From Planctomycetota bacterium (lineage in GTDB: Bacteria; Planctomycetota; Phycisphaerae; SM23-33): a DNA stretch of 64,000 nucleotides. The position numbers and the translations under genes were made by a program. The notes beneath the pieces are model-generated. The model searched no databases, was not told the origin of the DNA, and saw only the letters and a program-made list of their open reading frames with translations. This document shows positions 6,193 to 61,868 of the stretch, piece after piece. The stretch lies in contig JAAAOJ010000018.1 in the NCBI GenBank assembly GCA_009908915.1, positions 6,282-70,281 of the forward strand. Reading direction: 5' to 3'. Within the stretch, counting starts at the first letter, position 1, and every line of letters begins with the position of its first letter.

Positions 6193-6333
6193 TGGCACGG
6201 CCGCTCGACGGTTGTATAATGCCGCTTGCCTTGTCATGCGGATGAAACCGCTTGCCGTCGCTGCGCCGCCAACACGTGAGCACGTCATCCATGAGATTCG
6301 CCAGTTCCTTGACCGGACGGATCGCGAGCCAAT

Positions 6334-7918: not shown

Positions 7919-9130
7919 TCAGACATCGAGAATCCGACGGTAGCCGTCCGGCAGCGGTGCGTCGGGCGCCGACGGCGCGATGAGCGTTGCCGAGAGTTCC
8001 GGCGGCAGCGGCAGCGGACCGGTGGCAAGTTCCTCGGCCACCGCGTTGTTCCGATTGGCCATCAGGTCGCCCATGATGCACTGCCGTCGCGGTCGCCGGA
8101 AGCGGTCGGCCATGCCCTGCCAGATCTCGCCGAGCGGCTGCCGCGTGACATTGCCGAAACTCATCGGCGTCAGGTCGCACGGGCACAACTCGCCGTGGGC
8201 GTCAACGAACAGATGGTGGAAGCCCGCCCCACAGCCGAAGCAGTGCTCGCCCTCCATGTAGGCGAAGCTCAGCACGGCCGGGTCGTCGCCGCGGCGGTTG
8301 TGGCGGGCCTGGAAGTCGCTCAGCCGCCGCCGTTCGGGCTCGTCGAGCATGAACGCCTCGCAGCCGGCCTTGCTGCCGGTAGCCACCGGCGCGAGCAGGC
8401 GCAGCTCGCCGACACCCCACTCGCGGGCCATCTCGTAGATCGCATCGAGCCCCTCGCCGTTGAGCTTGTCGTGCGTGGCAACGGTCGACAGGGCCGTGTA
8501 GATTCCCGCCTGACGGCAGGCCTCCACGGCGAAGCTCGCCGCGGCGAAGCTGTTCTCGCCCTCGCCGCAGGCGCGCAGGCGGTTGTGCTCGTCGGGGTCC
8601 GCCGACTCGATACCCACCGTCACGCAGTCGCAGCCAGCCTCGGCGAGGCGGTCGGCCTCCCGGCTGCCGAGTTGTACGCCGGAGGTGAAGACGATCGTCG
8701 CCATCTCCGGGCCGGCCGCCGCGACGAGCCGTGGCAGGTCGCTTCGCAGCACCGGCTCGCCCCCGGTAAAGCCGACGATGCACGTGCCGAGTCGCCTCAA
8801 TTCCTCGATCACGTCCAGCCACTGCTGCGTGGTGAGTTCCTCGGCGTCGGTCCGGCCGGCGTGGCTGCAATGGGGGCAGTCGAACGGGCACTCGGCGGTT
8901 ACGGCCAGGTAGGCGCTGGTGGGCACGCGTCGGCCCCGGCGGATCGCACGCGTGGCGGCAATGAACCGGTCGAAGGCGTTTGACGGATATGGCGGAAAGA
9001 ACGTGTTGACCCACACGCGGCCGTCGTGTTTCTGGAGTTGGAAGTCGCGGCGACGACTCCACAGCCAGGCCAGATGCGGGGCCGGCACGGCCCGGGCCAT
9101 CCGCATCAACATCCGCGGCCACTCAAGCAT
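7919..9130 (-). CDS. radical SAM protein with C-terminal SPASM/twitch-like Cys cluster
   Basis: CxxxCxxC motif CPFDCPHC, GGEP motif (FTGGEPVL) and a C-terminal CFGCGAGFHHLFVDAHGELCPC. Start set at MLEWPRML (9130) with AAGGAG upstream. The rest of ORF 7919..9532 overlaps the next gene. Confidence 0.8.
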   Translation of the reverse strand: MLEWPRMLMRMARAVPAPHLAWLWSRRRDFQLQKHDGRVWVNTFFPPYPSNAFDRFIAATRAIRRGRRVPTSAYLAVTAECPFDCPHCSHAGRTDAEELTTQQWLDVIEELRRLGTCIVGFTGGEPVLRSDLPRLVAAAGPEMATIVFTSGVQLGSREADRLAEAGCDCVTVGIESADPDEHNRLRACGEGENSFAAASFAVEACRQAGIYTALSTVATHDKLNGEGLDAIYEMAREWGVGELRLLAPVATGSKAGCEAFMLDEPERRRLSDFQARHNRRGDDPAVLSFAYMEGEHCFGCGAGFHHLFVDAHGELCPCDLTPMSFGNVTRQPLGEIWQGMADRFRRPRRQCIMGDLMANRNNAVAEELATGPLPLPPELSATLIAPSAPDAPLPDGYRRILDV

Positions 9131-9620
9131 ACTCCTTCTCTCCCTCACCGAGCAGTGCCTGCCAGATGCCCGCCAGTATCCCGCCGCACAGCAGCCCCAC
9201 CACAGCCGCACACGCCAGCGACAGCCCGCCAACGGCAACGATGTGTTCCCGGGCTCGCAGGATCGGCGTCGCGTCGCCCCCCATCGCACGGTCGACCAGC
9301 GGCCAGGTATGCGGCCACCACAACATGAACATCCCAAAGGCGGCCGCGACGATGCCCCAGACCACGCCGGCCCGCGTGAGTTCGCGTTCCGGATCGCGCC
9401 GCAGGGCCGCCCCCACGCGCCACCGCCACAACAGTCCGCCGATTGCCCCGCCGATGCCCGCCGAATGCGACGGCGCACTGCCAAGCCCCGCCAGCATCGA
9501 CCCGCTGACCACGCCGGCCGTCGCGCCCGCACCCACCGCGATCAGCCACATCGCCCGCGCGATGCCCGCCTCCCGTCGCTTGGCCTTGTCGGTTTCGGTC
9601 GTCTCCGGCAATTCACTCAT
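9123..9620 (-). CDS. hypothetical integral membrane protein
   Basis: 165 aa from MSELPETTE with about four Gly/Ala-rich hydrophobic segments. Its stop overlaps the radical SAM start by 8 nt, which suggests co-translation. Confidence 0.5.
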   Translation of the reverse strand: MSELPETTETDKAKRREAGIARAMWLIAVGAGATAGVVSGSMLAGLGSAPSHSAGIGGAIGGLLWRWRVGAALRRDPERELTRAGVVWGIVAAAFGMFMLWWPHTWPLVDRAMGGDATPILRAREHIVAVGGLSLACAAVVGLLCGGILAGIWQALLGEGEKEYA

Positions 9621-9746
9621 GGAATCATCGTACTTCTCCGCAGGCCGACCCGCAAGCAGCGATCGGAGCGTCAAAAACGGCTCGTGCCGAAGCCTGACGT
9701 ATACGCTGTATGTACAGGGTGTTACAGCAGCGTGGACACTAGACGC

Positions 9747-9779
9747 TTGCGGCGGGCGGCGATGTGGCATACAATTTGC
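9747..9779 (+). promoter_or_regulatory. overlapping sigma-70-like promoter (TTGCGG-N17-TACAAT) and sigma-54 -24/-12 element (TGGCAT-N5-TTGC) upstream of rpoN
   Basis: Sequence reads cgcTTGCGGcgggcggcgatgTGGCATACAATTTGCgg. GG and GC have the canonical spacing. The -10 hexamer lies inside the sigma-54 spacer. The site is 67 nt upstream of the rpoN ATG. Confidence 0.5.
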
Positions 9780-9845
9780 GGTAAACTCGTTCCGATGCAT
9801 GCGTGGACTCGCGTGTGCGGCCCTGTCTTCACTGTCGGTAATGTC

Positions 9846-11708
9846 ATGCGTTTAGACCAATCCCAACAACTTCGCCTCAGCCAGGAGATGAAACTCTCGC
9901 CACGGATGATCCAGGCGATGGAGATTCTCCAGCTTCCCATGATGGCCTTGCAGGAGCGCATCGAGGCCGAGATGGAGTCTAACCCGGTTCTGGAACTGGC
10001 CGAAACCACCGATGAACCGGCCGATCTGGACGTGGACCACGACGCCGATCGCGGGGAGCGGGAACTCGTGGTCGAAGGCGAAAACGGCGAGGCGGACTTC
10101 GATCGCATGGACCGCATGGCGGCCGAGTACGGCGAAGAGGTCTTCGACTCCGACGCGTCGAGCGGCCGCGGCAGCTACAACACGGCCGCCTCCGACGCCA
10201 AGCAGGGCGCGATGGAGAACTCGGCAGCCCGGGGGGAATCACTGAACGAGTATCTGCATGAGCAATGGACGTTTGTGGAGGCCGACGAGGCGATTCACAA
10301 GGCCGGCTCGCTGATCATCGAGCACATCGACGACGACGGGTACATCCGCACGCCGCTGGAGGAACTCGTCGAACTGGCCAACCGGGCCGTGGCAGCCTCT
10401 CGACAATGGGAAGCCTTGCAGGACACGGGCGATACGCCGGGCGCAACGGCCGGTAACGGCGAGCCCGATACGACAACAGACTTCGCGTCGGACGAGACGA
10501 TGAGCGATGAGCACGCCGCAGCTCCGAGTGCCAGCGGAGAACTCAACCTCGATCGTACCGTTGAACTTGACCGGCAGCGCGGCGAAGCACCTGCTCCGAC
10601 GCGTCCGCCTGCGGAGACGGACACCCGGCAACACGGTCGACGTGCTGCCGCACCGCGCACAACGCCTGGTTCGCCCCGGACGGACAATGCTGCACCGCGC
10701 GAAACGAGCATTGAGACGGGAACAACGCCAGAGGCGTGTACTGATGGGACAGCACCGCACAACGCATCCCCACCGTCCTACTCACGAGGAACGTTCGAGC
10801 AGGCGTTGCGGCTGGTCCAGACGCTCGATCCGACCGGCGTGGGCGCCCGCAACCTGCGCGAGTGCCTGCTGATTCAGCTCAACGTCAAGGAAGTCGCCGG
10901 CGAAGACGTCGCCCTGCCAAAGATGCTGGCCGGCGGCTATCTGCGTGAGATCGAGACAAACCAACTGCCGAAGATCGCCAAGCGAAGCGGCATGGACATC
11001 GACGAGATCAAACGCGGCATCGAGGCGCTGTCGCACCTGAATCCGCATCCGGGCCACCTCATCGGCGACCGCGAGGTGCCCACCATCGAACCGGACGTCT
11101 ACGTCGACCTCGACGAGAACGGCCAGGCCGTCGTCACGATGTCCGAAGCGAACGTGCCGGCTCTGGTGATCAACGAGTACTATCGTCAGGCCGCCCGCGA
11201 CCGCCGCACCGACCGCGACGCACGGCAGTTCCTGCGCAAGAACATCCGCTCGGCAAACTGGTTAATCTCCGCGATCGCGCAGAGGCGACACACGATTCGC
11301 CGCGTGGCCGAGGAGGTCTTCAAGGTTCAATGCGACTTCCTCGAAAACGGACGCGAAGCCCTCAAGCCCCTGCCGATGGCCGATATCGCCGAGACGGTCG
11401 GCGTACACGTGGCCACCGTCAGCCGGGCCGTCGCCGACAAGTACGCCCTCACGCCCCAAGGCATCGTGCCGCTGCGAATGTTCTTCTCCGGCGGGACGAA
11501 GACCGCCGACGGCGAGGATATGAGCTGGGACGCCGTGAAGGCCAAGCTCAAGGACCTCGTCGACAACGAGGACACATCCAAGCCCCTCAGCGACAAAGCC
11601 CTCGCCAAGGCCCTACAGGCCGGCGGCATCGACATCGCACGGCGCACCGTCGCGAAGTACCGAGACCAGCTCGACATCCCCACGGCCCGCAAACGGAAAC
11701 AGTATTGA
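9846..11708 (+). CDS. rpoN: RNA polymerase sigma-54 factor RpoN
   Basis: Region I MRLDQSQQLRLSQEMKLSPRMIQAMEILQLPMMALQERI, an acidic region II, a core-binding segment (LDPTGVGARNLRECLLIQL), an HTH and the RpoN box ARRTVAKYR. 620 aa. The upstream part of ORF 8919..11708 is not coding. Confidence 0.95.
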   Translation: MRLDQSQQLRLSQEMKLSPRMIQAMEILQLPMMALQERIEAEMESNPVLELAETTDEPADLDVDHDADRGERELVVEGENGEADFDRMDRMAAEYGEEVFDSDASSGRGSYNTAASDAKQGAMENSAARGESLNEYLHEQWTFVEADEAIHKAGSLIIEHIDDDGYIRTPLEELVELANRAVAASRQWEALQDTGDTPGATAGNGEPDTTTDFASDETMSDEHAAAPSASGELNLDRTVELDRQRGEAPAPTRPPAETDTRQHGRRAAAPRTTPGSPRTDNAAPRETSIETGTTPEACTDGTAPHNASPPSYSRGTFEQALRLVQTLDPTGVGARNLRECLLIQLNVKEVAGEDVALPKMLAGGYLREIETNQLPKIAKRSGMDIDEIKRGIEALSHLNPHPGHLIGDREVPTIEPDVYVDLDENGQAVVTMSEANVPALVINEYYRQAARDRRTDRDARQFLRKNIRSANWLISAIAQRRHTIRRVAEEVFKVQCDFLENGREALKPLPMADIAETVGVHVATVSRAVADKYALTPQGIVPLRMFFSGGTKTADGEDMSWDAVKAKLKDLVDNEDTSKPLSDKALAKALQAGGIDIARRTVAKYRDQLDIPTARKRKQY

Positions 11709-11874: not shown

Positions 11875-13146
11875 TCATTGCCAGCGGCGTATGACGATGG
11901 CGGTAATATCGTCGGCCTGCGACGTGCCGACGGTGTGGCGGTCGACGGCTAGGCGGAGTCCGTTAACAATCTCGGCGGCCGAGCGGTCGGACGTCGCCCG
12001 GAGCTGATCGATCATGCCGGGCACGCCGAACATCTCGTCGTCGGCATCCGGCGCCTCGAAAATCCCGTCCGTCGTCACCACCGCCAGGTCGCCGGGCTCG
12101 AACCGGAAGGTCTCGACGGCCTCGAAGGCCGTATCCGGCAGGATGCCAAGCGGCACGTCGGTGGCGCCGACTTCCTCAAAGCTCTCCTCGCCGCGGCGGT
12201 AGAAGATCATCGGGCCATGGCCGGCCGACGCCCAGGTAAGCGTCGCCGAGGCCGGATCGAGAATGCCGAAGAAACAGGTGACGAATCGGCTACCGTCGAG
12301 GTCCTCGACCAGCAGGCGATTGGCCGTGGCGAGTACGCGGCAGACACGGCACTCGGCGGATTCGGCCAGCATTGCCGAGGCGCGAAGCATGGCCCGCGTT
12401 TCGGCGATGACCAGCGCCGGACCGATGCCGTGGCCGGTCGCGTCGGCGACCACGAAGCCCCACTGTCCGTCCGGCAGCGGGATGAAATCGAACGTATCGC
12501 CTCCGGTCTCATCGGCGGGATCGCTGCGGCCGGCCGCGTCGAAGCCGTCGATCCACGGTGCCGACTTGGGCAGCAGGCCCTGCTGGATGTCCTGGGCGAT
12601 CTGCATGGCCCGCTCCATCTCCTGCTTGCGGGCGTAGTGCTCCATGAGCTGCGCCCGCTGGACGGCCACGCCGGCCTGGGCCGCCAGGGCCTCGGCGAGG
12701 GCGACGTCCTGGTCAGTAATGTCGCCGGTAAGGTTGAGCACCTGCAGCACGCCGTTGACGCGGCCTTCGAAATCGCTAAGGGGCACGGACATGAGGTTCC
12801 GCGTGCGGAAGCCGGTCTGGCGGTCGACCTCGGGGTTGAACCTCGCGTCGGCGTAGGCGTCCTGGCAGACGATGGTGTGGGTGGCCTGGACGGCCTCGCC
12901 GCAGAAACCCTTGTCGGCGGGCACGCGGAGTTCGTCAACGCCGGTCGCCACGCGCGTGACAAGCTCGTGCCGCTCGACATCGTGCAGCCATACCGTGCCG
13001 CGCTCCGCCTGCAGTAATGCGAGGCTGCGGTCGACGATCAGCGTCAGCAGTTCGTCGAGGTCGCCGGCGGCTCCCATGGCCCGGGTGATTTCCAGGACCT
13101 GGTCGAGCCCGCGCGGCGCGTTCTGTTCATCGTCTGTCATGGACAT
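11875..13146 (-). CDS. GAF domain-containing SpoIIE/PP2C-family protein phosphatase
   Basis: N-terminal GAF-like region, then PP2C/SpoIIE motifs: GGDTFDFIPLPDG, VADATGHGIGPAL, WASAGHGP, VVTTDGIFEA and DDITAIVIRR. Confidence 0.85.
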   Translation of the reverse strand: MSMTDDEQNAPRGLDQVLEITRAMGAAGDLDELLTLIVDRSLALLQAERGTVWLHDVERHELVTRVATGVDELRVPADKGFCGEAVQATHTIVCQDAYADARFNPEVDRQTGFRTRNLMSVPLSDFEGRVNGVLQVLNLTGDITDQDVALAEALAAQAGVAVQRAQLMEHYARKQEMERAMQIAQDIQQGLLPKSAPWIDGFDAAGRSDPADETGGDTFDFIPLPDGQWGFVVADATGHGIGPALVIAETRAMLRASAMLAESAECRVCRVLATANRLLVEDLDGSRFVTCFFGILDPASATLTWASAGHGPMIFYRRGEESFEEVGATDVPLGILPDTAFEAVETFRFEPGDLAVVTTDGIFEAPDADDEMFGVPGMIDQLRATSDRSAAEIVNGLRLAVDRHTVGTSQADDITAIVIRRWQ

Positions 13147-21124: not shown

Positions 21125-21922
21125 TCAGGCGCGGGTGGATTCGAGCTCCTTCTCCCGAGACTCCAGCTGCGCTCGCAGTCGTTCCATGATGGCCGAGTGC
21201 ATCTGGCTGACGCGACTCTCCGAGAGATCGAGCGTCTCGCCGATTTCCTTCATCGTCATCTCCTCAAAGTAGTAGAGGATGACGATCAGCCGCTCGGCCC
21301 GGCTCAGGCCGCGAGTGATGAGTTCCTTCAGGTCCTTCCGCTGGGCCGAGCGGATCGGGTCCTGGCTACGCCGATCCTCGAGGACGTCAATCTCGCGAAC
21401 GTCCTTGTTACTGTCGGTCTCGAACCACTTGCGTGACAATGAGACGAAGCTCGTGGCGTTCGCGTCGCGCTGCAGCTTGCGGAATTCCTTCATCGAGAGG
21501 CCCATCTGCTTGGCCAGCTCCCTATTTGTTGGCTTGCGGCCGAGCTGGGCTTCGAGATTCTGCGTGGCAGCGTTGAGTTTGCTGGCCCGGCTTCGCACGA
21601 GCCGCGGCACCCAGTCGAGGCTGCGCAGTTCGTCGAGGATCGCGCCGCGGATACGCTGGGCGCAGTATGTCTCGAACTTGACGCCGCGCGACAGGTCGAA
21701 CGCCTTGACCGCGTCCATCAGGCCGAAGATGCCCGAGGAAATCAAGTCGTCCACATCCACCTCGTCAGGCAGCTTCTGGTGCAGACGCTCGGCCGTGTAT
21801 TTCACAATCGGCAGGTAATGCTCCAACAGCCGGTTGCGTGAGTACTCGTCGCCTTTCGACTTGAACGAGTCCCACCACTGCCTGACCTCGTTGGCCGAGA
21901 CTTCGTCTTTCTGCGTTCTCAT
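21125..21922 (-). CDS. fliA: flagellar RNA polymerase sigma-28 factor FliA/WhiG
   Basis: Region 2 (YLPIVKYTAERL...DLISSGIFGLMDAVKAFD...FETYCAQRIRGAILDELR), region 3 and region 4 (LSRAERLIVILYYFEEMTMKEIGETLDLSESRVSQMHS). Start at MRTQKDE with GGAAGGAG upstream. Confidence 0.85.
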   Translation of the reverse strand: MRTQKDEVSANEVRQWWDSFKSKGDEYSRNRLLEHYLPIVKYTAERLHQKLPDEVDVDDLISSGIFGLMDAVKAFDLSRGVKFETYCAQRIRGAILDELRSLDWVPRLVRSRASKLNAATQNLEAQLGRKPTNRELAKQMGLSMKEFRKLQRDANATSFVSLSRKWFETDSNKDVREIDVLEDRRSQDPIRSAQRKDLKELITRGLSRAERLIVILYYFEEMTMKEIGETLDLSESRVSQMHSAIMERLRAQLESREKELESTRA

Positions 21923-22186
21923 CCTTGCACTCCTTCCAATCCGTTGATTGCCAACAGCCAGCGGCATCCTTGCCGCGGCCTTTGACACACTTAAGCCTGT
22001 GTGGCTACACTGATTACAGCCGCCGTGCGGTCTCGCGTGAGCAGACGTTGGTCCATCTGCTTCCGCGGGCGCAGCGTCTCTGCCGTTCTGGTTGTCGCTA
22101 CCTTATTCTCTGCCCATCGACGTATTTCTTTAGCGTTTCGTGCCCATGGGTTGCGATTTCCCTGTCGCATCACATGCGCTCCCGGT

Positions 22187-24295
22187 TCATGCCTGCTTGG
22201 CCGGAGCCGCCGCAACCGAATCCTCGGTCGCACGCTCCGCCGTGACCTCCGCTACACTCTGCAGCAGCAGGCCGGTTGTTTCGTTGTGTCCCAGAACCAC
22301 CGCGACGATGTCGCGGCGTCGCAGCAGTCGCAGCACGGCCTGGCGTGCGGCAGCGCCGCAGACCACCACCGCCGTGCGCCCGTCGCGGGTGAGGGATTCA
22401 ATCGCCGCACGCAGCGACTCGATGGCGGCTTCCATATCCCGCAGCCGCACCGCCGCCGGCTCGGCCGCCATGCGTCGGGCCAGGGCGTCGAACTGCGGAC
22501 TCGTCGTCACGCACCACAGGCGGCCCTCGCCGTCCAGCCACGGCTGGCAGAGACAACGGCCGAGACGTTCACGGATGATCCGCACCTGGTCGTCGAAGTC
22601 GTCGCTGGCCTCGGCGGCTTCGCAGATGGCCTCGAGGACGGCCTCGCGGTCGCGAAGCGATACGCGTTCCGACAGCAGCCGATGCAGCAGCCGCTGGATA
22701 CGTCCCAACGAAAGCTTGCGTCGCGCCTCGGCGACCACGTCGCCCGCCGTCGGCTCAAGGGCGCTGAGCATATCGGCCACGCGCTGGCGGCTGAGGAGTT
22801 CCGCGGCGTGGCCGGTCACGACAATCTCCACGTGGTCCACGAGAGCGTCGGCCGGCTCGCGAACCCGCAGGCCCGCCATCTCCGCCACCGGCCGCTGACC
22901 GCGGGCAATCCACGTGCCGGTTCGGCCGTCGTCGATGCGTCCGCTCGGCGTTCCGCCCAGACGGCGGACCGTCTCCACGTCGCCGCTGGCAAGCAAACGG
23001 CTCGGGCGCAGGCGACCCGTTGCGACCACGGCGCCGCGGAGGCAGATGCGGTACTCGTGGGCACGGATGTTCATGTTGTCGCGAATCCATACCGGCGGGA
23101 TGACCAGCCCCAGCCGTTCGCCAAGCCGTTCGCGAAGGTGACCCAGACGGTCGACGAGGTCGCCGCCGGTCTCGCGGTCGACCAGCGGAATCAGGGCATA
23201 GCCGAGATCGATCTGCATCGGCCGAACCGGCGCGGGCTCGATGCCCTCGGTCCCGTCGGCGTCTCGTGTCGCGTCCGTCGGCTCGACCGTCTCGCCCCCC
23301 CGCCCGGCCTTGAGTCGCCAGGCCGTCAGCAGGCAACCCGCCGCCAGCAGCGCCAGCGGCAAGGTCGGAAGCGACGTGAGCATCAGCACGCCAAGGAAGG
23401 CGGCCGTCACCACGAGCACCGCCGGACGACGCGTCAACTGGCCGAACACTTCCTCGCCGAGATTTGCCCGGGCCGTCGCGCGCGTGACCATCAACGCCGC
23501 CGAGACGCTCACCAGCAGGGCCGGGATCTGCGCAACCAGGCCGTCGCCGATCGTCAGTCGCGAGAAGAGCCCGACGGTCTCGCCCCAGCTCCAGCCGTAC
23601 TGCACCATGCCGACGTACAGACCGCCGCCGATGTTCACGAGCGTGATCACGACCGCGGCGATGGCGTCCCCGCGTAGGAATTTTGATGCGCCGTCCATCG
23701 CCCCGTAGAAGTCGGCCCGGGCGGCCACGTCCTCGCGGCGGCTGCGGGCTTCGGATTCGTCGATAAGACCGGCGTTGAGGTCGGCGTCAATCGCCATCTG
23801 TCGGCCGGGCATCGCATCGAGGACGAACCGGGCCGCCACTTCGGAGATACGGGCGGCGCCTTTGGTGATGACGACGAACTGGATGATGGCGATGATCGCA
23901 AAGAGGATAACGCCGACGGCCAGCGACCCGCTGGCGACAAACTCGCTAAAGGTCCAGATCACCCGCCCGGCGGCGAGGTGTGCCTGCCCGGCGCCCCCCC
24001 CTCCCTCACCGGCTGTCAGGATCAGGCGTGTCGTGGCGATATTCAGCACCAGCCTCAGCAGCGTTGCGCCGAGCAGCACCGACGGGAAGACGCTAAACTC
24101 CATCGGGCTGCTGACGAAGATCGTCGTCAGGAAGACCACCGCCGCCAGCGTGATGCTGCCTGCCAGAAGAACGTCCATAACCACCGGCGGCAGCGGCACG
24201 AGAACGACGAAGATCAGCGCCGCCGCGGCGGACGGCACGATGTAGCCGCGAAGCCGGCCAGCCCGATCGGTCTGTTGGAGGCCCGCCGGCATCAT
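22187..24295 (-). CDS. flhA: flagellar type III export gate protein FlhA
   Basis: 702 aa. N-terminal TM domain with the conserved FHIPEP-region pattern (FPSVLLGATLLRLVLNIATTRLIL, RISEVAARFVLDAMPGRQMAIDADL), followed by a large cytoplasmic domain. Confidence 0.9.
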   Translation of the reverse strand: MMPAGLQQTDRAGRLRGYIVPSAAAALIFVVLVPLPPVVMDVLLAGSITLAAVVFLTTIFVSSPMEFSVFPSVLLGATLLRLVLNIATTRLILTAGEGGGGAGQAHLAAGRVIWTFSEFVASGSLAVGVILFAIIAIIQFVVITKGAARISEVAARFVLDAMPGRQMAIDADLNAGLIDESEARSRREDVAARADFYGAMDGASKFLRGDAIAAVVITLVNIGGGLYVGMVQYGWSWGETVGLFSRLTIGDGLVAQIPALLVSVSAALMVTRATARANLGEEVFGQLTRRPAVLVVTAAFLGVLMLTSLPTLPLALLAAGCLLTAWRLKAGRGGETVEPTDATRDADGTEGIEPAPVRPMQIDLGYALIPLVDRETGGDLVDRLGHLRERLGERLGLVIPPVWIRDNMNIRAHEYRICLRGAVVATGRLRPSRLLASGDVETVRRLGGTPSGRIDDGRTGTWIARGQRPVAEMAGLRVREPADALVDHVEIVVTGHAAELLSRQRVADMLSALEPTAGDVVAEARRKLSLGRIQRLLHRLLSERVSLRDREAVLEAICEAAEASDDFDDQVRIIRERLGRCLCQPWLDGEGRLWCVTTSPQFDALARRMAAEPAAVRLRDMEAAIESLRAAIESLTRDGRTAVVVCGAAARQAVLRLLRRRDIVAVVLGHNETTGLLLQSVAEVTAERATEDSVAAAPAKQA

Positions 24296-25359: not shown

Positions 25360-26139
25360 TTATCCCTTGGCTCCGGTGCTGACGGCCTCGCTGAGAGCCC
25401 GCTGCGTGATCTGCCATGCCTGGTCCGTCAGTGGCACGAGGGCTGCCACGGCCCCGCCGAGGACGATCAGGCCCAGCAAGGCCCGGGCGGGCAGGCCCAT
25501 GTTGAACACGTGAAGTTGCGGCATGCTTCGCTGCACGACGCCGAGCACGACCGTCACCACGATCAGCGCCAGCAGCACCGGGGCCGCCACCTTCAGTGCC
25601 AGCAGAAAACTGCTGCCCAGCAGCCCGACGACGAATTTCAACAGCCCCAGCGGCTGCCAGGCCGCGCCGAGCGGCAAGGTTTCGTAGGTACCCATCAGGG
25701 CCGCGGCGAGTTGCATGTGGCCGTCGAGCAGCACGAAGACCGCAATCGCGCCGACGACAAGCAGCCGCTGCAGCGGCCCGCCATTCTGTCCGGCTGACGG
25801 GTCGGCCAGTTCCCCGATCGTCAGGCCCATCTGCGTTGCCACGTGCCAGGCCCCGATAGCCATGCCCGTGAAGATCAGTCGCACGCCCAGGCCGATCACC
25901 AGCCCCATGCCGAGTTCCATGACCACCGCCGCCAGCAGCGACGCCGGCGCCGGCGCGACCATGGCGGGCTCGAACAGCCGGCCGAGAACCGCCACGCCCA
26001 ACACCAGGGCCATCGCCACGCGAAGACGCAGCGGCACGGTCATCGCCGCGAAGGGCGGCGCGACCAGCAGCACGCCGGCGGCCCGGCAGGTGGCCAGCAG
26101 CAGCGTCAGCGTCCAGGCGATGTTGGTTGCGTCGTTCAT
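25360..26139 (-). CDS. fliR: flagellar export gate protein FliR
   Basis: 259 aa from MNDATNIAW, polytopic and hydrophobic. Position between fliQ and flhB is canonical. Confidence 0.8.
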   Translation of the reverse strand: MNDATNIAWTLTLLLATCRAAGVLLVAPPFAAMTVPLRLRVAMALVLGVAVLGRLFEPAMVAPAPASLLAAVVMELGMGLVIGLGVRLIFTGMAIGAWHVATQMGLTIGELADPSAGQNGGPLQRLLVVGAIAVFVLLDGHMQLAAALMGTYETLPLGAAWQPLGLLKFVVGLLGSSFLLALKVAAPVLLALIVVTVVLGVVQRSMPQLHVFNMGLPARALLGLIVLGGAVAALVPLTDQAWQITQRALSEAVSTGAKG

Positions 26140-26147
26140 AGGGTTTC

Positions 26148-26402
26148 TCAGGGTAGCGAGTACATGCGCCGGGCGAAGTCGAGGAGCATCGTCAGCATCC
26201 ACGGCAGGGCCACGATGGCCACCAGCATCACGCCGATGACCTTCGGCACGAGGCTGAGCGTCGGGTCGGTCACCTGTGTCAGAGCCTGGGCCAGTGCGGT
26301 CGCCAGGCCGATGACCAGCGCCGTCGCCAGAAGCGGTACGGAAACGGCCAGCAGCACTCCCAGTGCCTCTCGCATCCAGTCAATGGCCTCGTACGGGAAC
26401 AT
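26148..26402 (-). CDS. fliQ: flagellar export gate protein FliQ
   Basis: 84 aa with two TM segments. The pattern LLAVSVPLLATALVIGLATALAQALTQVTDPTLSLVPK is typical of FliQ/SctS. Confidence 0.85.
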   Translation of the reverse strand: MFPYEAIDWMREALGVLLAVSVPLLATALVIGLATALAQALTQVTDPTLSLVPKVIGVMLVAIVALPWMLTMLLDFARRMYSLP

Positions 26403-26411
26403 AGGGTCGTC

Positions 26412-27251
26412 TTACGTTGCGAAGCTGCTCATGAGCGTCCCGGCAACGAGCGTCCAGCCGTCGGCCATGATGAACATGAGGAGCTTCAAGGGTGTTGCTA
26501 TCAGGACCGGCGGCAGCATCAGCACGCCCATGGACACGAGCACCGTGCCGACAAGCATGTCGATGATGACGAACGGCAGGAGAACTCTCAGGCCGATGAT
26601 GAAGGCGACCTTCAACTCGCCGAGCACGAAGCCCGGGACCATCGACCAGGTCGGCACGTCCGACCAGGCGAGGTCGTCGCGATGGGCGACGACGGGGTCG
26701 AGGAACGGGTAGACGGCATCGGCGGTCCCGGCGGATTCCATCTGGCCGATCATGAACCGCCGCACGGACGACTCGGCCCGGCCGATCGCCTCGCCCTGGG
26801 CGAGCGTGCCGTTCATCATCGGCGCGACGGCCTGCTTGTGAATCGTCTCGATCGTCGGTGCCATGACGACCACGGTCATCAGCAGGGCCAGGCCGAAAAG
26901 GATCTGGTTGGGCGGCAGCTGCGGCATGGCCAGTCCTTGCCGCAGCAGGCCGAGAACGACGATGATCCGGGTGAAGCTCGTAACCATCACGGCAAGGGCC
27001 GGCGCCAGTGAAATCACCGTCACCAGGGCAACCCACTTGACCAGCGAGGCCGTGTCCGCGGACGTGTCGATACCGGGGGCCGTGTCCCCGAGTTCCTCGG
27101 CGGCGGCCTGGCTGGCCTCGGCGACGGCAGTCGGCGCGCCCGCGCCGGCAGGTGCGCCGTTGGGGACGACCTCGTCGGTGCCTTCGGCGGCGGTAACGAC
27201 CGCGGTCGCGGCCAGCAGCCACAGCAGCAGAAGGATGATCTGGCGCGTCAC
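26412..27251 (-). CDS. fliP: flagellar export gate protein FliP
   Basis: Signal-like N-terminus, then TSFTRIIVVLGLLRQGLAMPQLPPNQILFGLALLMT and ELKVAFIIGLRVLLPFVIIDMLVGTVLVSMGVLMLPP, which are FliP/SctR hallmarks. Confidence 0.9.
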   Translation of the reverse strand: MTRQIILLLLWLLAATAVVTAAEGTDEVVPNGAPAGAGAPTAVAEASQAAAEELGDTAPGIDTSADTASLVKWVALVTVISLAPALAVMVTSFTRIIVVLGLLRQGLAMPQLPPNQILFGLALLMTVVVMAPTIETIHKQAVAPMMNGTLAQGEAIGRAESSVRRFMIGQMESAGTADAVYPFLDPVVAHRDDLAWSDVPTWSMVPGFVLGELKVAFIIGLRVLLPFVIIDMLVGTVLVSMGVLMLPPVLIATPLKLLMFIMADGWTLVAGTLMSSFAT

Positions 27252-27733
27252 GCCTCGCCCCCTTCCGCCTGCTCGCGCGCAGCCTTGCCGGCAACGATGC
27301 GTTCGACCTCGGCCGGGTCGTCAACCTCGCCCAGTCGGGCCATTCCGGCCGGGCTGCGCCCGACGAGCACCAGTCGCCCGCCCATGCGGACGAGCACAAG
27401 CTCCTGCTTGGTGGTCACAGCCGTTCGCGAAACGACCCGCAGTACGTCTGATTCTGTCGATGCCGTTTGGCCACCCAGACGGCCAATGGCCCATCGCAGG
27501 GCAATGATCAGCCCCACGACGATCGCCAGGGCCAGCAGCATCTGCAGCCAGGCTTTCCACCCGCCGGGACCGTCGCCGCCGTTGTCGCGTGACGGCAGCC
27601 GGCGGTTTTCCGGATCGTCCATGGACGGCGGGTCCGAAGCGGCAGGTGCGGTCCCGGCCGCCGCCACAGCAGCCGGGACCCCCACGATCGTTATCGCGGA
27701 AAGGAGCACCAGGATGGTTGTTCGTCTCTTCAC
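27248..27733 (-). CDS. fliO: flagellar biosynthesis protein FliO-like
   Basis: 161 aa with a single central TM (WLQMLLALAIVVGLIIALRWAI), followed by LRVVSRTAVTTKQELVLVRMGGRLVLVG. Canonical position before fliP with a 4-nt overlap. Confidence 0.65.
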   Translation of the reverse strand: MKRRTTILVLLSAITIVGVPAAVAAAGTAPAASDPPSMDDPENRRLPSRDNGGDGPGGWKAWLQMLLALAIVVGLIIALRWAIGRLGGQTASTESDVLRVVSRTAVTTKQELVLVRMGGRLVLVGRSPAGMARLGEVDDPAEVERIVAGKAAREQAEGGEA

Positions 27734-27755: not shown

Positions 27756-28118
27756 CTACACGGCGTGCCTTGCCTCGTCGAGGCTCAGTTGCGAGCGACG
27801 TTTCATGGCTGCCAGCAGCGACTCGCGCGACTGGCCGAACTGGACCTTGGCCGCGGCAAGTTCCGCGACACGCTTCCTCCGCTCGACCGTGTACTGTTGC
27901 CGGCGGCGACGATAGGTAGCGGCCGCCTCGGTCTGACCCTCGGCCTGAGAGACGATGGCCGCGTAGTAGTAGGCATCGGCCTGCTCCTGCAGGTCGTGAA
28001 TCTGTCGCCGTGCCTCGTCGAGGCGATGCTGAGCGGCAGCCATGTCGTCGCGGCAGGTGCGTTCCTCCTGCAAGCGAAGCTGCAGGACCGTGGTTCCGAG
28101 TGTGTCGCTTGTCGCCAT
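27756..28118 (-). CDS. coiled-coil protein, possibly FliJ-like export chaperone/stalk
   Basis: 120 aa, predicted all-helical and rich in Arg/Gln/Glu/Ala. The call rests on size, composition and position in the flagellar operon. No diagnostic motif. Confidence 0.35.
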   Translation of the reverse strand: MATSDTLGTTVLQLRLQEERTCRDDMAAAQHRLDEARRQIHDLQEQADAYYYAAIVSQAEGQTEAAATYRRRRQQYTVERRKRVAELAAAKVQFGQSRESLLAAMKRRSQLSLDEARHAV

Positions 28119-28161: not shown

Positions 28162-29703
28162 TCATGCCATCACCTGACCTTCGCGGACGGCCGTGGCCCT
28201 GTCGGCGGCGTCGCAGTCGCCGATGGCCTCGACGATCCGCCGCTGGGCGTCCTCGATGTCGCCGAGGCGGACCGGACCGATGTCTTGCATGCGGGCTTCG
28301 ACGGTCTCCGCGACCTGCGGTTCGATCGCGGCCAGCAGGCGTTCCTTCAGGTCATCACTGGCGGTACGAAGTGCGATGGCCAGGTCGTCCGGCGATGCGT
28401 CGGCCAAGGTCGTCGCCAGGCGGTCGGCGGGCAGGTCCACGATGTCGCCAAAGGTGAACAGTTGCCGGCTGATCGACTCGGCCAGACGGGGATCCTGGCG
28501 AGCCAGGGCTTCGAGGACATTCCGACGACCGGCGTGGCCGCTGTGTTTCAGTACGCGTGCGACGGCCGAGATGCCGCCCTGCCGGCGCCGATGGCCCTGT
28601 CCGTCTTCGGTTAGCCGTTCGGCAAGTCGCCTTTCCGCCTGTGCCAGTGTATCCGGGTCGATGCGGTCCATCACGGCCATGCACCGGGCCACCTGGACCT
28701 GCCGAGTCCCACCAAATCGGGCAAGGAGACGTGCTGCCCGGGAGGGGCTCATGTGGATCAGTGCCAGGGCGACTGTTTCGGCGGACTGGTCCGCCAGCAG
28801 TGTAGCCATGTCGTCGAAGGAAGCCTGCTTGAGGACCTCGAAGTGTCTCTTGGGGGGGACGACGGCAGCGGGGATATCGCAGCGGTGCTGACGCCGCCGG
28901 GCCAGTGCGCGGAGTCGAACCCACGCCAGCCGGCGACGCCGGCGCCGGATGCGCCGCATGATGATTGCTGCCACGATGGCGATCTCGGCCATAACGATTC
29001 CGGCCAGGACCACCCACACCCAGGGGACGCCAATGGATGCATGGATCGTGTCTTCAGCGGGTGAGGCGGGAACGGCCGTTGCCGCTTCGCTGGCCGGGCG
29101 ACTGTCCGTTGGCACGGGCGCCGCCTGGGCCTCGCGTGTCGCCAGAGCGCCGAGATCGTCGGCGAGGCAATAGCTGCCACCATGCGTGTCGATGACCCGG
29201 ACGGCTTGGCGGTTCAGGCCGGTCACCGCGCCGGCGACCTGGTCGGCGATGGCCGTCAACAGCGAGGCCGTGAAATCCGCATCCGCCGCAAGGTGGACGG
29301 TGACGACGGCTCGCGGTGGCTGAGCCTGGCGACCGAGGCCGCCGGGCGTACCGGGTTCGAGAAACACGGTCGCACGATCGACAGCGGCGAAATCACTGAG
29401 CAATCGCCCGAGCATGGCCATGCGGGCGAGCTGCCACCGCCGGTCGCGGTCGGCCTGGCTCTGCCAGATGTTGCTCTCGTTGGTGGCGGTTCGGAGTTCG
29501 GCCAGCGGATCGGACGATGCGGCCGGCTGGGCGGAATGCGTTGGTTCGTCGGACGGCGCAGGCCAGACGAGGCACGCCAGGAGAGCCACGCCCACGGCGA
29601 CGGCCATGGCCGACAGGAGCAGCTTCGAACGCCCCGCCTCCTGGACGAGGGCTTTGCTCCGCTGCGTGAGCGAGTCGAGCAGGTTGTTCCATCGTACTGG
29701 CAC
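28162..29703 (-). CDS. fusion protein: minimal FliF/SctJ-like membrane ring module plus FliG-like middle and C-terminal domains
   Basis: 513 aa. TM1 (res ~28-46), a YscJ/FliF-like segment (res ~88-175), TM2 (res ~226-249), a poly-Arg linker, then FliG-like ARM, GG linker, LFTFGDI (MFxF) and a C-terminal domain with IGPVRLGDIEDAQRRIVEAI. Confidence 0.7.
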   Translation of the reverse strand: MPVRWNNLLDSLTQRSKALVQEAGRSKLLLSAMAVAVGVALLACLVWPAPSDEPTHSAQPAASSDPLAELRTATNESNIWQSQADRDRRWQLARMAMLGRLLSDFAAVDRATVFLEPGTPGGLGRQAQPPRAVVTVHLAADADFTASLLTAIADQVAGAVTGLNRQAVRVIDTHGGSYCLADDLGALATREAQAAPVPTDSRPASEAATAVPASPAEDTIHASIGVPWVWVVLAGIVMAEIAIVAAIIMRRIRRRRRRLAWVRLRALARRRQHRCDIPAAVVPPKRHFEVLKQASFDDMATLLADQSAETVALALIHMSPSRAARLLARFGGTRQVQVARCMAVMDRIDPDTLAQAERRLAERLTEDGQGHRRRQGGISAVARVLKHSGHAGRRNVLEALARQDPRLAESISRQLFTFGDIVDLPADRLATTLADASPDDLAIALRTASDDLKERLLAAIEPQVAETVEARMQDIGPVRLGDIEDAQRRIVEAIGDCDAADRATAVREGQVMA

Positions 29704-29751: not shown

Positions 29752-29957
29752 CCAGCAGTCGGTTAGACATGGATCGCGTCGCGAGGTCGAGGCACTTTGC
29801 CGAGCATCAAGGGGCGGAAACGCAGGCGACTGGTGAATTCGCTGAGTTTTCGCGACGATGACGCACAGGCACAAGGCCCGACCGCAGCAGCGATAGCTTT
29901 CAAAAAGGCCCGGCCGCAGCAGCGATAGCTTTCGAAACGGTCTAAACGGGCTGCTAG
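29752..29957 (+). repeat. MITE-like intergenic element, copy C (contains an internal 33-nt tandem duplication)
   Basis: Left end ccagcagtcggttagac, right end tctaaacgggctgctag. The core is shared with copies B, E and F. aaggcccg(a/g)ccgcagcagcgatagctttc occurs twice in tandem. Confidence 0.8.
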
Positions 29958-30304
29958 ATTTCCATGCGGGTGAAATGCTCCCGTATGCGTTCAAGGGGCA
30001 CCCTCTGTGCCCGCAGTTTCTGTATCAGGTCGATGCGTTCGAAAACACTCTGGTCGTACTGGCGGTGGCCGCCACGCGTCCAACCCGCCTCGTCGATGAG
30101 GCCCATGATCGTGTAGTTGTGAATTGTCTGCCGACTGCAGCCATAGTGCTCGGCGACCTCACCGATGCGATACAACTTCGGCGGTATCCCTGACTCGTCG
30201 TCGGATTCGGCGATGAGCACCGTCAGGTCAACTGCCCCGTCGTCGATTTCGAGCTCGTCATCTCGCCGCTGATGTTTGTCGTTGCGGAAATCCGGCATCA
30301 TCAT
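29954..30304 (-). CDS. MerR-family transcriptional regulator
   Basis: HTH YRIGEVAEHYGCSRQTIHNYTIMGLI...GGHRQYDQSVFERIDLIQKLR with an acidic N-terminal tail. Triple ATG at 30298-30304 follows AGGAAG. The long upstream part of ORF 29954..30973 is not credible. Confidence 0.75.
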   Translation of the reverse strand: MMMPDFRNDKHQRRDDELEIDDGAVDLTVLIAESDDESGIPPKLYRIGEVAEHYGCSRQTIHNYTIMGLIDEAGWTRGGHRQYDQSVFERIDLIQKLRAQRVPLERIREHFTRMEI

Positions 30305-30542
30305 CTTCCTGGTCTGCGATTCCGGCAGCTGTATATTGTATGCTTTACAAATCATAAAATGAACTACTGTGATGTCCGCGTCAATGCAAAAATGCAGAAA
30401 TATCTGTTGACCCCACGACACCGCCCGAGCACGCGCACACAAAAGGTTACGGCAGCATCCCCAGGTCCTCCCCATCGCCCACCATGGCCCGCATGCATCA
30501 TCTGTTGCCATCTCGGACTCGCATGCCCTAAGATGCGGTGCC

Positions 30543-31724
30543 GTGCGTAGACTGCGACCCATCCTGACGGCTCTCGGCGGTGCAGCCATCGGCCTGGCTG
30601 TGCTTGTCCTTCTTCGGATAACCGTTCTGGGCCCGCACTCGAGGCCACCCTCGCAGGACCGCCCTGACCTCGCTGCCCCCGGTCCCCGGCCGCCATCGCC
30701 TGTAGGTTCGCCATCCACGCCGGCTGGCAATGCCCCTGACCGTTGGCCCGAGGATACCCCCGACCCAGGCAGCAAGGTCAAACCTGCCGACGCAACCGAA
30801 CCCGGCGCCGCCCGGACACCAACGCTCCCAAACCCCGCCGGCAGCGCAGCGATGGCACAGGAGATGCTCGCCGCGCTTGAACCGTTGGGCAGATCGGCCG
30901 GCACCGACCCCGCTGGCCCCGGCCGTGCCCGCGACCTGATCGGCCAGGGCGATGCCACTCTCGCTGACGGCAAGGCTGCCGCGGCAGCCGACCTCTTCCG
31001 TCAGGCGCTGGATGTTGATCCCCACGATGCCGACGCGGTTGCCGGCCTGGCGATGGCACTGCTGATAGCCGAGGAATTTGAAGACGCCATTCCGGTCTAT
31101 CGCAAGCTCATCGCCCTGAGACCCGAGGATCATACGGCGTGGCACAACCTCGCCCTGGCCCTGGTGCGCACGGGCGACATGTTCGAAGCCGAGCACGTCT
31201 ACCTCCGCCTGATCGATCGCGAGCCGGAATTCGTCGAGGCACGGGCAAACCTCGCGACGATCCACCAGGCCAGGGGGAAACTCGCCGATGCCGCCCGGCA
31301 GTGGCGAAGAGTCGTTGATCTCGATGCGAAACGGGCCGACGCGTGGGCCAACCTGGGCGAAGTGCTCATCGATCTCGGACAGGCCGAGGAGGCCATGCAC
31401 GCCTATGCCGAGGCGGCTAAGCTGCGGCCGAAGGTGGCCTCGGGTTGGCTGAACTACGCCGTAGCCGCACAGGAAGCCGGCAGCGGCGGGCGGGCGCTGG
31501 CAGCCCTGGAGCGGGTAATCGAACTGGCTCCGCACGATCCCGAGCCCTGGCGTATGATGGGCGACGTGAAGATCGAGTTGTACCGGGTCACGAAGGAACC
31601 CGCCCTGCTCAAGGGCGCCGTGGAGGCCTGGCGGAAAAGCCTGCAACGCGACAGCAATCAGCCTCAACTCGACAAGCGCCTCCATCTGTACGGCCCGCTC
31701 GCCGAAGAGGCCGAAAGCGAATAG
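30543..31724 (+). CDS. TPR repeat protein with N-terminal membrane anchor
   Basis: GTG start, TM segment ILTALGGAAIGLAVLVLL, a Pro-rich linker, then at least six TPR-like 34-aa units (e.g. AWHNLALALVRTGDMFEAEHVYLRLIDREPEF). Confidence 0.75.
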   Translation: MRRLRPILTALGGAAIGLAVLVLLRITVLGPHSRPPSQDRPDLAAPGPRPPSPVGSPSTPAGNAPDRWPEDTPDPGSKVKPADATEPGAARTPTLPNPAGSAAMAQEMLAALEPLGRSAGTDPAGPGRARDLIGQGDATLADGKAAAAADLFRQALDVDPHDADAVAGLAMALLIAEEFEDAIPVYRKLIALRPEDHTAWHNLALALVRTGDMFEAEHVYLRLIDREPEFVEARANLATIHQARGKLADAARQWRRVVDLDAKRADAWANLGEVLIDLGQAEEAMHAYAEAAKLRPKVASGWLNYAVAAQEAGSGGRALAALERVIELAPHDPEPWRMMGDVKIELYRVTKEPALLKGAVEAWRKSLQRDSNQPQLDKRLHLYGPLAEEAESE

Positions 31725-61822: not shown

Positions 61823-61868
61823 CTGTCGCCTTCCTGCATCCGCGCGGATGGTTATTGTCCGCCCATGT

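Follow-up and report, generated by a model that had tools for sequence, protein, structure and literature searches.

A natural FliF–FliG fusion in Phycisphaerae, probably a static ring housing for a reduced flagellum-derived type III export gate

Introduction

What becomes of the flagellar ring protein FliF and the rotor protein FliG when the two are joined in a single chain, and can such a chain still be part of a motor? The question is raised by a stretch of 64,000 nucleotides from a planctomycete of the class Phycisphaerae (assembly GCA_009908915.1, contig JAAAOJ010000018.1, positions 6,282 to 70,281), referred to below as the window. It carries a gene that fuses one FliF ring-building motif (RBM) to the middle and C-terminal domains of FliG and that stands at the head of a set of flagellar export-gate genes. 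A preliminary description of the locus, prepared from the sequence, had proposed that the product is the membrane–supramembrane (MS) ring and rotor of a basal body of non-textbook architecture. Here we show that the fusion belongs to a large family with a single origin, that its FliG part has lost residues characteristic of a rotor, and that the genes around it have been reduced in a matching way. The fusion is probably a static housing of an export gate.

Results

One reading frame joins a FliF ring module to two FliG domains

The fusion gene (Table 1) is read from 29703 to 28162 and contains no internal stop. Its N-terminus, VPVRWNN, lines up with the M/VRNRWNN starts of its orthologues. Along the chain, a first transmembrane (TM) helix is followed by a single RBM2, a second TM helix, an Arg-rich helix, the FliG middle domain (FliG_M), the GG linker and the FliG C-terminal domain (FliG_C). 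Three Pfam models score above their curated cut-offs: PF01514 (YscJ_FliF) at residues 74-175 (51.1 bits, E 2e-13, profile positions 73-174 of 179), PF14841 (FliG_M) at residues 300-367 (48.8 bits) and PF01706 (FliG_C) at residues 398-499 (89.8 bits). The N-terminal domain of FliG (FliG_N) is absent from the fusion, because PF14842 reaches only 21.5 bits, below its cut-off and on top of the FliG_M match, and because the alignment to the FliG model TIGR00207 begins at profile position 109 (positions 109-317 of 338 against fusion residues 285-494).

The FliF part is equally incomplete. A hidden Markov model (HMM) made from the RBM1 of three-RBM relatives finds no RBM1 in the fusion, where TM1 and RBM2 are only about 35 residues apart, and neither an RBM3 HMM nor PF08345 matches in the place of RBM3 and the β-collar. 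The C-terminal FliF peptide that binds FliG_N has not been kept either: TM2 runs through the Arg-rich helix (RRIRRRRRRLAWVRLRALARRRQHR) into FliG_M, this helix standing where the peptide and FliG_N would be. What the protein has in common with FliF is RBM2 and the two TM helices on either side of a periplasmic region. Scored as a whole, it stays below the cut-offs of both parent families, with 140.3 bits for TIGR00207 (cut-off 226.7; canonical Planctomycetota FliGs score 365-380 bits) and 14.7 bits for the FliF model TIGR00206 (cut-off 129.75).

An AlphaFold2 model built on 20 homologues has a mean pLDDT (predicted local distance difference test) of 79, rising to 93-96 over residues 90-180. 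In this model RBM2 has an α-β-β-α-β fold, FliG_M and FliG_C are all-helical, and TM2 and the Arg-rich segment form one long helix (residues 227-275), while residues 194-225 appear as a low-confidence, disordered tether rich in Ala and Pro. The basic residues ahead of TM1 fit a cytoplasmic N-terminus, and the cytoplasmic part after TM2 amounts to 264 residues. Foldseek matched the model to FliG MC crystal structures (3USY, 1LKV; E about 1e-11) and to the RBM2 chains 8WKQ_W*, 7CGO_D* and 6SD2 of FliF (target TM-score 0.85-0.92, root-mean-square deviation 1-2 Å), which in the Salmonella and Vibrio motor structures form the inner ring enclosing the export gate. By sequence, the FliG part matches the PDB entries 1LKV, 4FHR and 3USW with E-values of 1e-23 to 1e-28.

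On the make-up of the protein, the preliminary description was thus right. It had read the frame as a FliF/SctJ-type ring module joined to the FliG middle and C-terminal domains, with two TM segments (hydropathy peaks at about 28 and about 231, in agreement with the model helices), a periplasmic part cut down to what we find to be a single RBM2, and FliG_N replaced by a direct link, which makes ring and FliG module necessarily 1:1. The architecture does depart from the textbook MS ring, having no RBM3, S ring or β-collar, and all the sequence strings quoted there are present. The minus strand of the gene and the natural fusion known from Chlamydiaceae (PMC4768692) were absent from that account.

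Table 1. Features of the fusion locus in the window, in window coordinates
Feature	Positions	Strand	Basis and remarks
FliF(RBM2)-FliG(MC) fusion gene	28162..29703	minus	continuous ORF (open reading frame), 513 aa, GTG start
TM1	29563..29622	minus	residues ~28-47; hydropathy peak at residue 28; model helix 25-46
RBM2, the single periplasmic ring-building motif	29164..29457	minus	residues ~83-180; PF01514, model fold, Foldseek
TM2	28957..29025	minus	residues ~227-249; hydropathy peak at residue 231; start of model helix 227-275
Arg-rich juxtamembrane helix RRIRRRRRRLAWVRLRALARRRQHR	28879..28956	minus	residues 250-275; alignment
FliG_M with degenerate EHPQR (QSAE...C)	28588..28821	minus	residues ~295-372; PF14841; alignment to T. 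maritima FliG 1LKV
FliG_C	28204..28512	minus	residues ~398-500; PF01706; alignment to 1LKV and 4FHR
FliJ homologue, 120 aa, coiled coil	27756..28118	minus	weak TIGR02473 (E 8e-5), Pfam FliJ match, conserved gene order
FliO	27248..27733	minus	PF04347, E 8e-10
FliP	26412..27251	minus	PF00813, 205 bits, full length
FliQ	26148..26402	minus	PF01313
FliR	25360..26202	minus	PF01311, 158 bits; true start probably downstream of the listed GTG, which overlaps fliQ
FlhB, 354 aa	24292..25356	minus	PF01312, 242 bits
FlhA, 702 aa, full length	22187..24295	minus	PF00771, 664 bits, profile 2-652 of 657; orthologues 70-71% identical
FliA-type (σ28-like) sigma factor, last gene of the cluster	21125..21988	minus	Sigma70 regions r2, r3, r4
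MerR-family helix-turn-helix regulator	29954..30304	minus	PF13411, PF00376; start uncertain, ATG at 30304 taken
32-bp tandem duplication, unit AAGGCCCGACCGCAGCAGCGATAGCTTTCAAA	29873..29937		2 copies, 93% match, Tandem Repeats Finder; spacer between MerR gene and fusion
TPR-repeat protein, divergent from MerR gene	30543..31724	plus	TPR Pfam matches

A family of fusions in several grades of reduction

A word-indexed search returned 20 clusters with the same three Pfam domains, all named sources being metagenome-assembled genomes of Phycisphaerae. A HMMER pass with the profile of these 20 was then made against 1.84 billion representative proteins, and its top 150 matches were sorted with segment HMMs; about 130 of them proved to be full-length fusion clusters at 50% identity. 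They fall into grades according to how much of the periplasmic part is left ahead of the FliG_M and FliG_C domains (FliG_MC). RBM1, RBM2 and RBM3 are all present in 79 clusters (about 610-680 aa), RBM2 and RBM3 in 41 (about 585-605 aa), RBM1 and RBM2 in 4, and RBM2 alone in 8. Within the last group, the window fusion and its orthologues, which have the same architecture at 50-53% identity, are 504-513 aa long, and the other four 577-787 aa. The window fusion is the most reduced grade of the family. At the other end, a model of a three-RBM member (pLDDT 83) displays three RBMs, the third with a short helix in place of the β-collar, which in canonical FliF takes up roughly 110 residues; its fold matches include a full-length FliF model, EscJ and PrgK.

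Since some 130 clusters of independent assembly share the fusion and its junction is conserved, we rejected an assembly or frameshift artefact. The claim of the preliminary description that the covalent fusion is natural holds, and the fusion is conserved. Conservation is unevenly spread along the chain. Between the window fusion and its RBM2-only orthologues the Arg-rich helix is the most conserved segment (81-85% identity), ahead of RBM2 (59-63%), FliG_C (55-62%), FliG_M (51-53%) and the linkers (21-47%). The helix is still 65-73% identical in the RBM2-RBM3 grade; in three-RBM members its place is taken by a variable linker.

Natural FliF–FliG fusions of other kinds were also encountered. 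One protein of 494 aa (P0022, locus L010, 4010-5494) combines FliF_C (PF08345) with FliG_MC; the same locus holds FlaF and DUF1153 genes and, to guess from these neighbouring gene families, is presumably alphaproteobacterial. The others, P0259, P0265-P0267, P0272, P0273, P0275 and P0278, are proteins of 715-996 aa with a C-terminal FliG. FliF and FliG may have been fused on more than one occasion.

The FliG module has lost residues for the stator and for FliM

We aligned the FliG_MC parts to T. maritima FliG and compared them with 71 canonical Planctomycetota FliGs. Every one of the latter (71/71) keeps EHPQ and its partner Arg, GG, MF[VI]FED, K/R264, R281, the acidic pair 288/289 and R297. 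In the window fusion, the FliM-binding EHPQ...R of FliG_M reads QSAE...C, and the E. coli torque-helix positions K264, R281, D288, D289 and R297 are occupied by R, Q, A, R and R, which amounts to a loss of three of the five charges (R281→Q, D288→A, D289→R). The protein retains the GG linker, an MFxF-like LFTFGD, the basic residue at 264 and GPVR. R281, D288 and D289 face MotA, and EHPQR binds FliM.

The same tendency runs through the family. The stator-contact arginine R281 is retained in 15 of 122 full-length fusion representatives and lost in the other 107 (about 88%), and the acidic pair 288/289 is degenerate across the fusions. In this set EHPQ survives in 56/78 three-RBM, 16/34 RBM2-RBM3 and 1/6 RBM2-only fusions, disappearing in step with the FliH, FliI and FliN genes of the operon.

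An export-gate operon without the NPTH site of FlhB

All genes of the window cluster lie on one strand: a MerR-family regulator, a 250-bp spacer, the fusion, FliJ, FliO, FliP, FliQ, FliR, FlhB, FlhA and a FliA-type sigma factor. FliH, FliI, FliN, FlhF and FlhG are not among them. The assignment of the short FliJ gene is supported by profile–profile comparison, in which it matches FliJ from fuller operons (probability 95%, E 3e-8, 105 columns). When essentially all plausible ORFs of the 64-kb window were compared with Pfam, no other flagellar gene was found, and in particular no motA, motB or fliM. The preliminary description had called the fusion the first gene of the export-gate operon; this stands, except that the MerR gene lies upstream in the same direction, a position it keeps in every related locus.

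The order of genes is constant in all of the approximately 25 loci examined: MerR, fusion, (FliH, FliI), FliJ, (FliN), FliOPQR, FlhB, FlhA, (FlhF, FlhG), FliA, where parentheses mark genes found only in some. Operons of the three-RBM grade (L001, L005, L007, L012, L014, L015, L031, L058, L070, L083 and L091) have the complete set, MerR, fusion, FliH, FliI, FliJ, FliN (~85-100 aa), FliOPQR, FlhB, FlhA, FlhF, FlhG and FliA, and those of the two shorter grades (the window, L002-L004, L011 and L013) only MerR, fusion, FliJ, FliOPQR, FlhB, FlhA and FliA. The FliA homologue comes after FlhF-FlhG in the full operon and directly after FlhA in the reduced ones.

Another loss concerns FlhB. Despite its full length of 354 aa, the window protein has APGG in place of the NPTH autocleavage motif, its SAPGGPALAIRY standing opposite TNPEHFSVALRY and TNPTHYSVALQY in the FlhBs of Vibrio and Salmonella (NPEH/NPTH). 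NPxH is absent from FlhB in 16 of 16 fusion operons: in the relatives either the site is mutated (NPHG, DPHG, AGDG) or the protein is cut to about 260 aa, and most FlhBs of fusion operons do end at about that length, before the C-terminal subdomain. A canonical Phycisphaerae FlhB, in contrast, reads VTNPTHVAVALKY, with NPTH kept. Autocleavage at NPTH acts with FliK in setting the change from hook-type to filament-type export.

Other members of the family display changes of their own. FlhA of the RBM2-RBM3 grade (L004, L011, L013; P0029-P0033, P0039, P0040) is about 576-640 aa long and matches only about 80% of window FlhA, the C-terminal end of the cytoplasmic domain being missing. In the three-RBM operon L007, fliI is split or N-terminally truncated (5407-6898), and a foreign gene with a 23S_rRNA_IVP domain (9201-9635) has been inserted between fliQ and fliR. 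We read these changes in L007 as a sign that erosion is still going on in some members.

The fusion operon is a canonical flagellar locus with parts removed

A scan of species-representative genomes yielded at least 513 loci, of which the best 80, all from Planctomycetota, comprise 9 fusion and 71 canonical loci. The canonical loci contain FlgC, FliE, FliF (543-614 aa), FliG (337-370 aa), FliH and FliI. Their full order, read from L087 and from L092 as a control, is MerR, TPR, histidine kinase, σ54 response regulator, FlgB, FlgC, FliE, FliF, FliG, FliH, FliI, FliJ, FliK, FlgD, FlgE, FlbD, MotA, MotB, FliN, FliOPQR, FlhB, FlhA, FlhF, FlhG and FliA. The fusion operon follows this order without the rod, FliE, hook, FliK and MotAB genes, and its fliF and fliG are a single gene. 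The best 80 loci come from 80 different assemblies, so that no assembly among them has both a fusion and a canonical locus. Canonical loci of the Sedimentisphaerales type (L028, L029, L032, L039, L071, L084, L087 and L090) also start with a MerR-family gene, and MerR may be a lineage-specific flagellar regulator in Phycisphaerae.

The fusions of the family have a single origin. In neighbour-joining trees the fusion FliG_MC modules are monophyletic (28/28), and the FliI proteins of fusion operons form one clade (10/10), sister to eleven Sedimentisphaerales-type canonical loci, most of which have MerR upstream. The two proteins differ in pace. Fusion FliG_MC evolves faster than its canonical counterpart (root-to-tip distance 0.667 vs 0.393; median pairwise identity 41% vs 71%), whereas the FliI encoded with it keeps to the canonical rate (0.263 vs 0.262), which points to a change of constraint specific to the FliG module. 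Fusion-type and canonical FlhAs overlap in identity and are not separable in that way. These results fit one fusion event in a Phycisphaerae lineage, in which the canonical locus was replaced in place, rather than an old paralogue.

Seen against this background, the one claim of the preliminary description that is not supported is that of a rotor. EHPQR and three of five torque-helix charges are gone, FlhB carries APGG, the operon has no FliH, FliI or FliN, and relative to the canonical operon the rod, hook, FliK and MotAB genes are missing.

Comparison with known systems

The closest precedent is found in Chlamydiaceae, non-flagellated bacteria with a natural FliF–FliG fusion, CT719 (NCBIfam NF004606/PRK05934; Bergeron 2016, PMC4768692). 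That protein, of about 330 aa, consists of a TM helix, RBM2, a second RBM-like domain, another TM helix and the FliG_M region only (PMC4768692). Both fusions come from the PVC (Planctomycetes–Verrucomicrobia–Chlamydiae) superphylum and have two TM helices around a shortened, RBM2-based periplasmic part, with no RBM1 and no β-collar, and a FliG-like cytoplasmic part directly after TM2. They differ in that the window protein is 513 aa long, has one RBM and includes both FliG_M and FliG_C. Moreover, flagellar-type fliPQR and flhB are not found in Chlamydiae, whereas in the window the whole gate lies beside the fusion. Membership of the window protein in the chlamydial family was rejected on account of this architecture and of its score, 17.8 bits (residues 95-179) against a cut-off of 297.

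There are nevertheless resemblances that go beyond the single protein. In C. trachomatis, flhA (CT060) is next to fliA (CT061), and fliI (CT717) lies two genes from fliF (CT719) (PMC10597470); the Phycisphaerae operon, too, pairs flhA with fliA and fliI with fliF as neighbours. In addition, the PRK05934 model matches the RBM2 part of several Phycisphaerae fusions (28-44 bits), and it matched neither of two canonical Planctomycetota FliFs. We regard common descent of the chlamydial and Phycisphaerae fusions within the PVC superphylum as a lead, not a demonstration. Our search for literature on a natural FliF–FliG fusion in Planctomycetes or Phycisphaerae found none and turned up the Chlamydia paper alone.

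With the canonical FliF and FliG of Salmonella and Planctomycetota the window fusion has in common the RBM2, FliG_M and FliG_C folds, the GG linker, the MFxF-like motif, GPVR and the position ahead of fliH-I-J..fliOPQR-flhBA; it differs from them in being without RBM1, RBM3, the β-collar, the FliF C-terminal peptide, FliG_N, EHPQR and three torque-helix charges. Engineered fusions, that is, Salmonella deletion-fusion mutants and a Vibrio FliF–FliG fusion that forms rings (PMC10941966; PDB 8Z4D/8Z4G), likewise link ring protein and FliG covalently at 1:1. However, they keep full-length FliF with three RBMs and collar, essentially full FliG and the rotor residues, whereas the window fusion has lost the latter and is about half their size (the 8Z4D chain, identified by a PDB sequence match, is a FliF–FliG fusion of 945 aa).

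The injectisome proteins SctJ (EscJ/PrgK) resemble the fusion in building a small RBM-based ring directly around the export gate and in having one C-terminal TM helix, but SctJ is a lipoprotein with RBM1 and RBM2 and no cytoplasmic domain, unlike the window protein with its N-terminal TM helix, RBM2 only and FliG module. We rejected the assignment to SctJ, as there is no TIGR02544 match at E ≤ 1 and no lipobox, and a cytoplasmic part is present. A flagellar type III core kept after the loss of motility parts is also seen in the filament-less basal bodies of Buchnera. Reduced systems of this type, however, keep separate FliF and FliG as well as rod and hook genes, and we know of no fusion or loss of the FlhB switch reported for them. 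As for a role of FliG other than torque, a Campylobacter study assigns to the MS ring and FliG, together with the type III secretion system of the flagellum, a non-torque signalling role (PMC3760246).

Surroundings of the cluster in the window

The spacer between the MerR gene and the fusion contains a 32-bp tandem duplication (Table 1). Since the orthologous spacer in L002 is only ~52 bp long, the repeat is specific to the window genome, as a local insertion or duplication. An AT-rich stretch (30330-30400, minus strand) with repeated TGCATT, in a genome of 65% GC, is situated just upstream of the MerR gene; a scan for σ70-type promoters gave a single weak match, which falls in it, and no convincing σ54 promoter (GG-N10-GC spacing) was seen by eye in the region upstream of merR. 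The stretch is likely the promoter or operator region of the cluster. The divergent TPR gene is found beside MerR in the window, L002, L003 and L007, and also at the head of the canonical Sedimentisphaerales locus L087; its product is a conserved neighbour whose membership of the system is uncertain.

GC content at third codon positions (GC3) of the cluster genes is 0.76-0.89, typical for coding sequence of this genome. Further neighbours in the window are housekeeping genes, such as rho, mreB, his genes, tatAC and a σ54 gene. The σ54 (RpoN) ORF (8919-11708, plus strand) is 929 aa as listed, with the activator-interacting domain starting only at residue 315, which means either a long N-terminal extension or an over-called start. 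There are also two SpoIIE/PP2C-type phosphatases (11875-13146 and 59930-61879, both minus strand), one GAF-SpoIIE and one dCache-HAMP-SpoIIE; phosphatases of this type are typical of partner-switching control of sigma factors.

Discussion

The FliG module has lost the residues that contact the stator and bind FliM, and FlhB has lost the site of the specificity switch. Taken together, these losses make a static scaffold the most likely role of the fusion, and we consider it probable that the protein is a 1:1 ring housing of a reduced flagellum-derived type III export gate rather than a rotor. Each lost site is matched by a lost gene, given the known roles of these sites: NPTH works with FliK, R281, D288 and D289 with MotA, EHPQR with FliM, and the β-collar surrounds the proximal rod. 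The course of events may have been that the rod, hook, hook-length and stator genes dropped out of a long ancestral flagellar operon while fliF and fliG became fused. In the resulting apparatus, RBM2 would oligomerise into a small inner ring directly around the FliPQR-FlhB core, and each subunit would carry one FliG_MC module via TM2 and the Arg-rich helix, the latter standing in structurally for the FliF tail and FliG_N. The FliG_MC modules might then form a cytoplasmic ring of equal copy number under the membrane and around FlhA. Such a gate would be driven by proton-motive force with the help of FliJ; it is established that Salmonella can export in the absence of FliH and FliI. It may export non-flagellar substrates, or it may act as an assembly or secretion checkpoint linked to FliA.

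Several points weigh against this picture. We infer ring formation, copy number, the lack of rotation, export activity and substrates, and a ring of ~21-24 subunits is suggested by analogy alone, the RBM2 ring of FliF being a 21-23-mer and the SctJ ring a 24-mer. The trees behind the single origin are neighbour-joining trees without support values. Lost charges do not prove lost torque, no single one of them being essential in E. coli. Rod, hook, flagellin, FliM and MotAB genes could sit outside the 64-kb window, and the apparatus might still build some axial structure. Finally, the FlhF, FlhG, FliA and FliN of the fuller operons, along with an intact EHPQR, look like those of a real polar flagellum.

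The last points lead directly to the idea that the fusion is the working MS ring and rotor of an unusual but functional flagellum, in which the covalent link fixes a 1:1 ratio and the genes for rod, hook, filament, FliM, stator and ATPase are located elsewhere. The flagellar ancestry of the operon is clear, its last gene encodes a FliA-type sigma factor, fuller relatives have FlhF, FlhG, FliN, FliH and FliI and keep EHPQR, engineered FliF–FliG fusions exist (PDB 8Z4D; the ring-forming Vibrio fusion, PMC10941966), and some Phycisphaerae are motile with one flagellum (PMC13514998). Yet the motile Phycisphaerae lineages in our sample have the canonical FliF and FliG locus, and R281, kept in 71/71 canonical FliGs, is lost in 107/122 fusions, the window protein being also without D288, D289 and EHPQR. 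Neither RBM3 nor β-collar is there to house a rod, none of the 16 fusion operons has the NPTH switch site in its FlhB, it is precisely the axial and stator genes of the canonical operon that have been deleted, and the window holds no other flagellar gene. A working flagellum of this kind therefore seems unlikely. We find it quite improbable that the fusion is an accessory paralogue, part of a second, specialised type III exporter beside a complete canonical flagellar locus. Many three-RBM fusions keep EHPQR in operons without fliM, which suggests that FliM comes from elsewhere, their FliG module evolves fast, as duplicated genes often do, and many bacteria carry two flagellar systems. On the other hand, FliI of the fusion operons diverges no further than canonical FliIs do among themselves, and it is sister to a canonical lineage with the same MerR and TPR head, which fits replacement in place better than duplication; the lack of any assembly with both locus types among the best 80 of at least 513 loci is weak evidence in the same direction.

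Could the locus simply be a functionless relic, caught part-way through its loss? The stepwise disappearance, across members, of RBM1, RBM3, FliH/I/N, FlhF/G, the FlhB C-domain and the FlhA C-terminus has this appearance, as does L007 with its split fliI and the foreign gene between fliQ and fliR. But decay of this sort is very improbable, since all nine genes are intact both in the window and in orthologues only 50-70% identical, domains are conserved far above linkers (the Arg-rich helix at 81-85%), GC3 is that of coding sequence in this genome, and about 130 clusters at 50% identity are too divergent for unselected ORFs to have stayed open.

A bolder extension of the static-housing model would place the fusion operon beside flagella and injectisomes as a third type III secretion lineage, stator-less and, when reduced, ATPase-less, with a 1:1 FliF(RBM)-FliG housing. 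This lineage would have arisen once in the PVC superphylum, and the chlamydial CT719, CT717, CT060 and CT061 would be its remnants. The suggestion is prompted by the shared neighbour pairs, the shared architecture (PMC4768692) and the PRK05934 matches to RBM2; we nevertheless think it rather unlikely. As we propose for the fusion, the orphan flagellar genes of Chlamydia are thought to serve a leftover protein-export machine.

To our knowledge, natural FliF–FliG fusions were previously known only as a curiosity of Chlamydiaceae. What is new here is a large family of such fusions in free-living bacteria, which sits in an intact, syntenic operon and can be followed through several stages of reduction. 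The family records the dismantling of a flagellum in linked losses: torque-helix charges disappear along with the stator, the FlhB switch along with hook and FliK, the β-collar along with the rod, and EHPQR along with ATPase and FliN. Its most reduced members are candidates for a minimal type III system composed of one RBM ring, a FliG scaffold, FliJ, FliOPQR, FlhB and FlhA, which could be used to probe the part of the MS ring and FliG in gate assembly, as distinct from rotation. There is also a practical side: the fusion proteins are now annotated as 'hypothetical' or 'FliG', and their presence should not count as evidence of motility. For the PVC superphylum, the origin of the chlamydial flagellar genes becomes directly testable. 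If a third lineage did exist, free-living Phycisphaerae would keep whole the operon behind the orphan flagellar genes of Chlamydiae.

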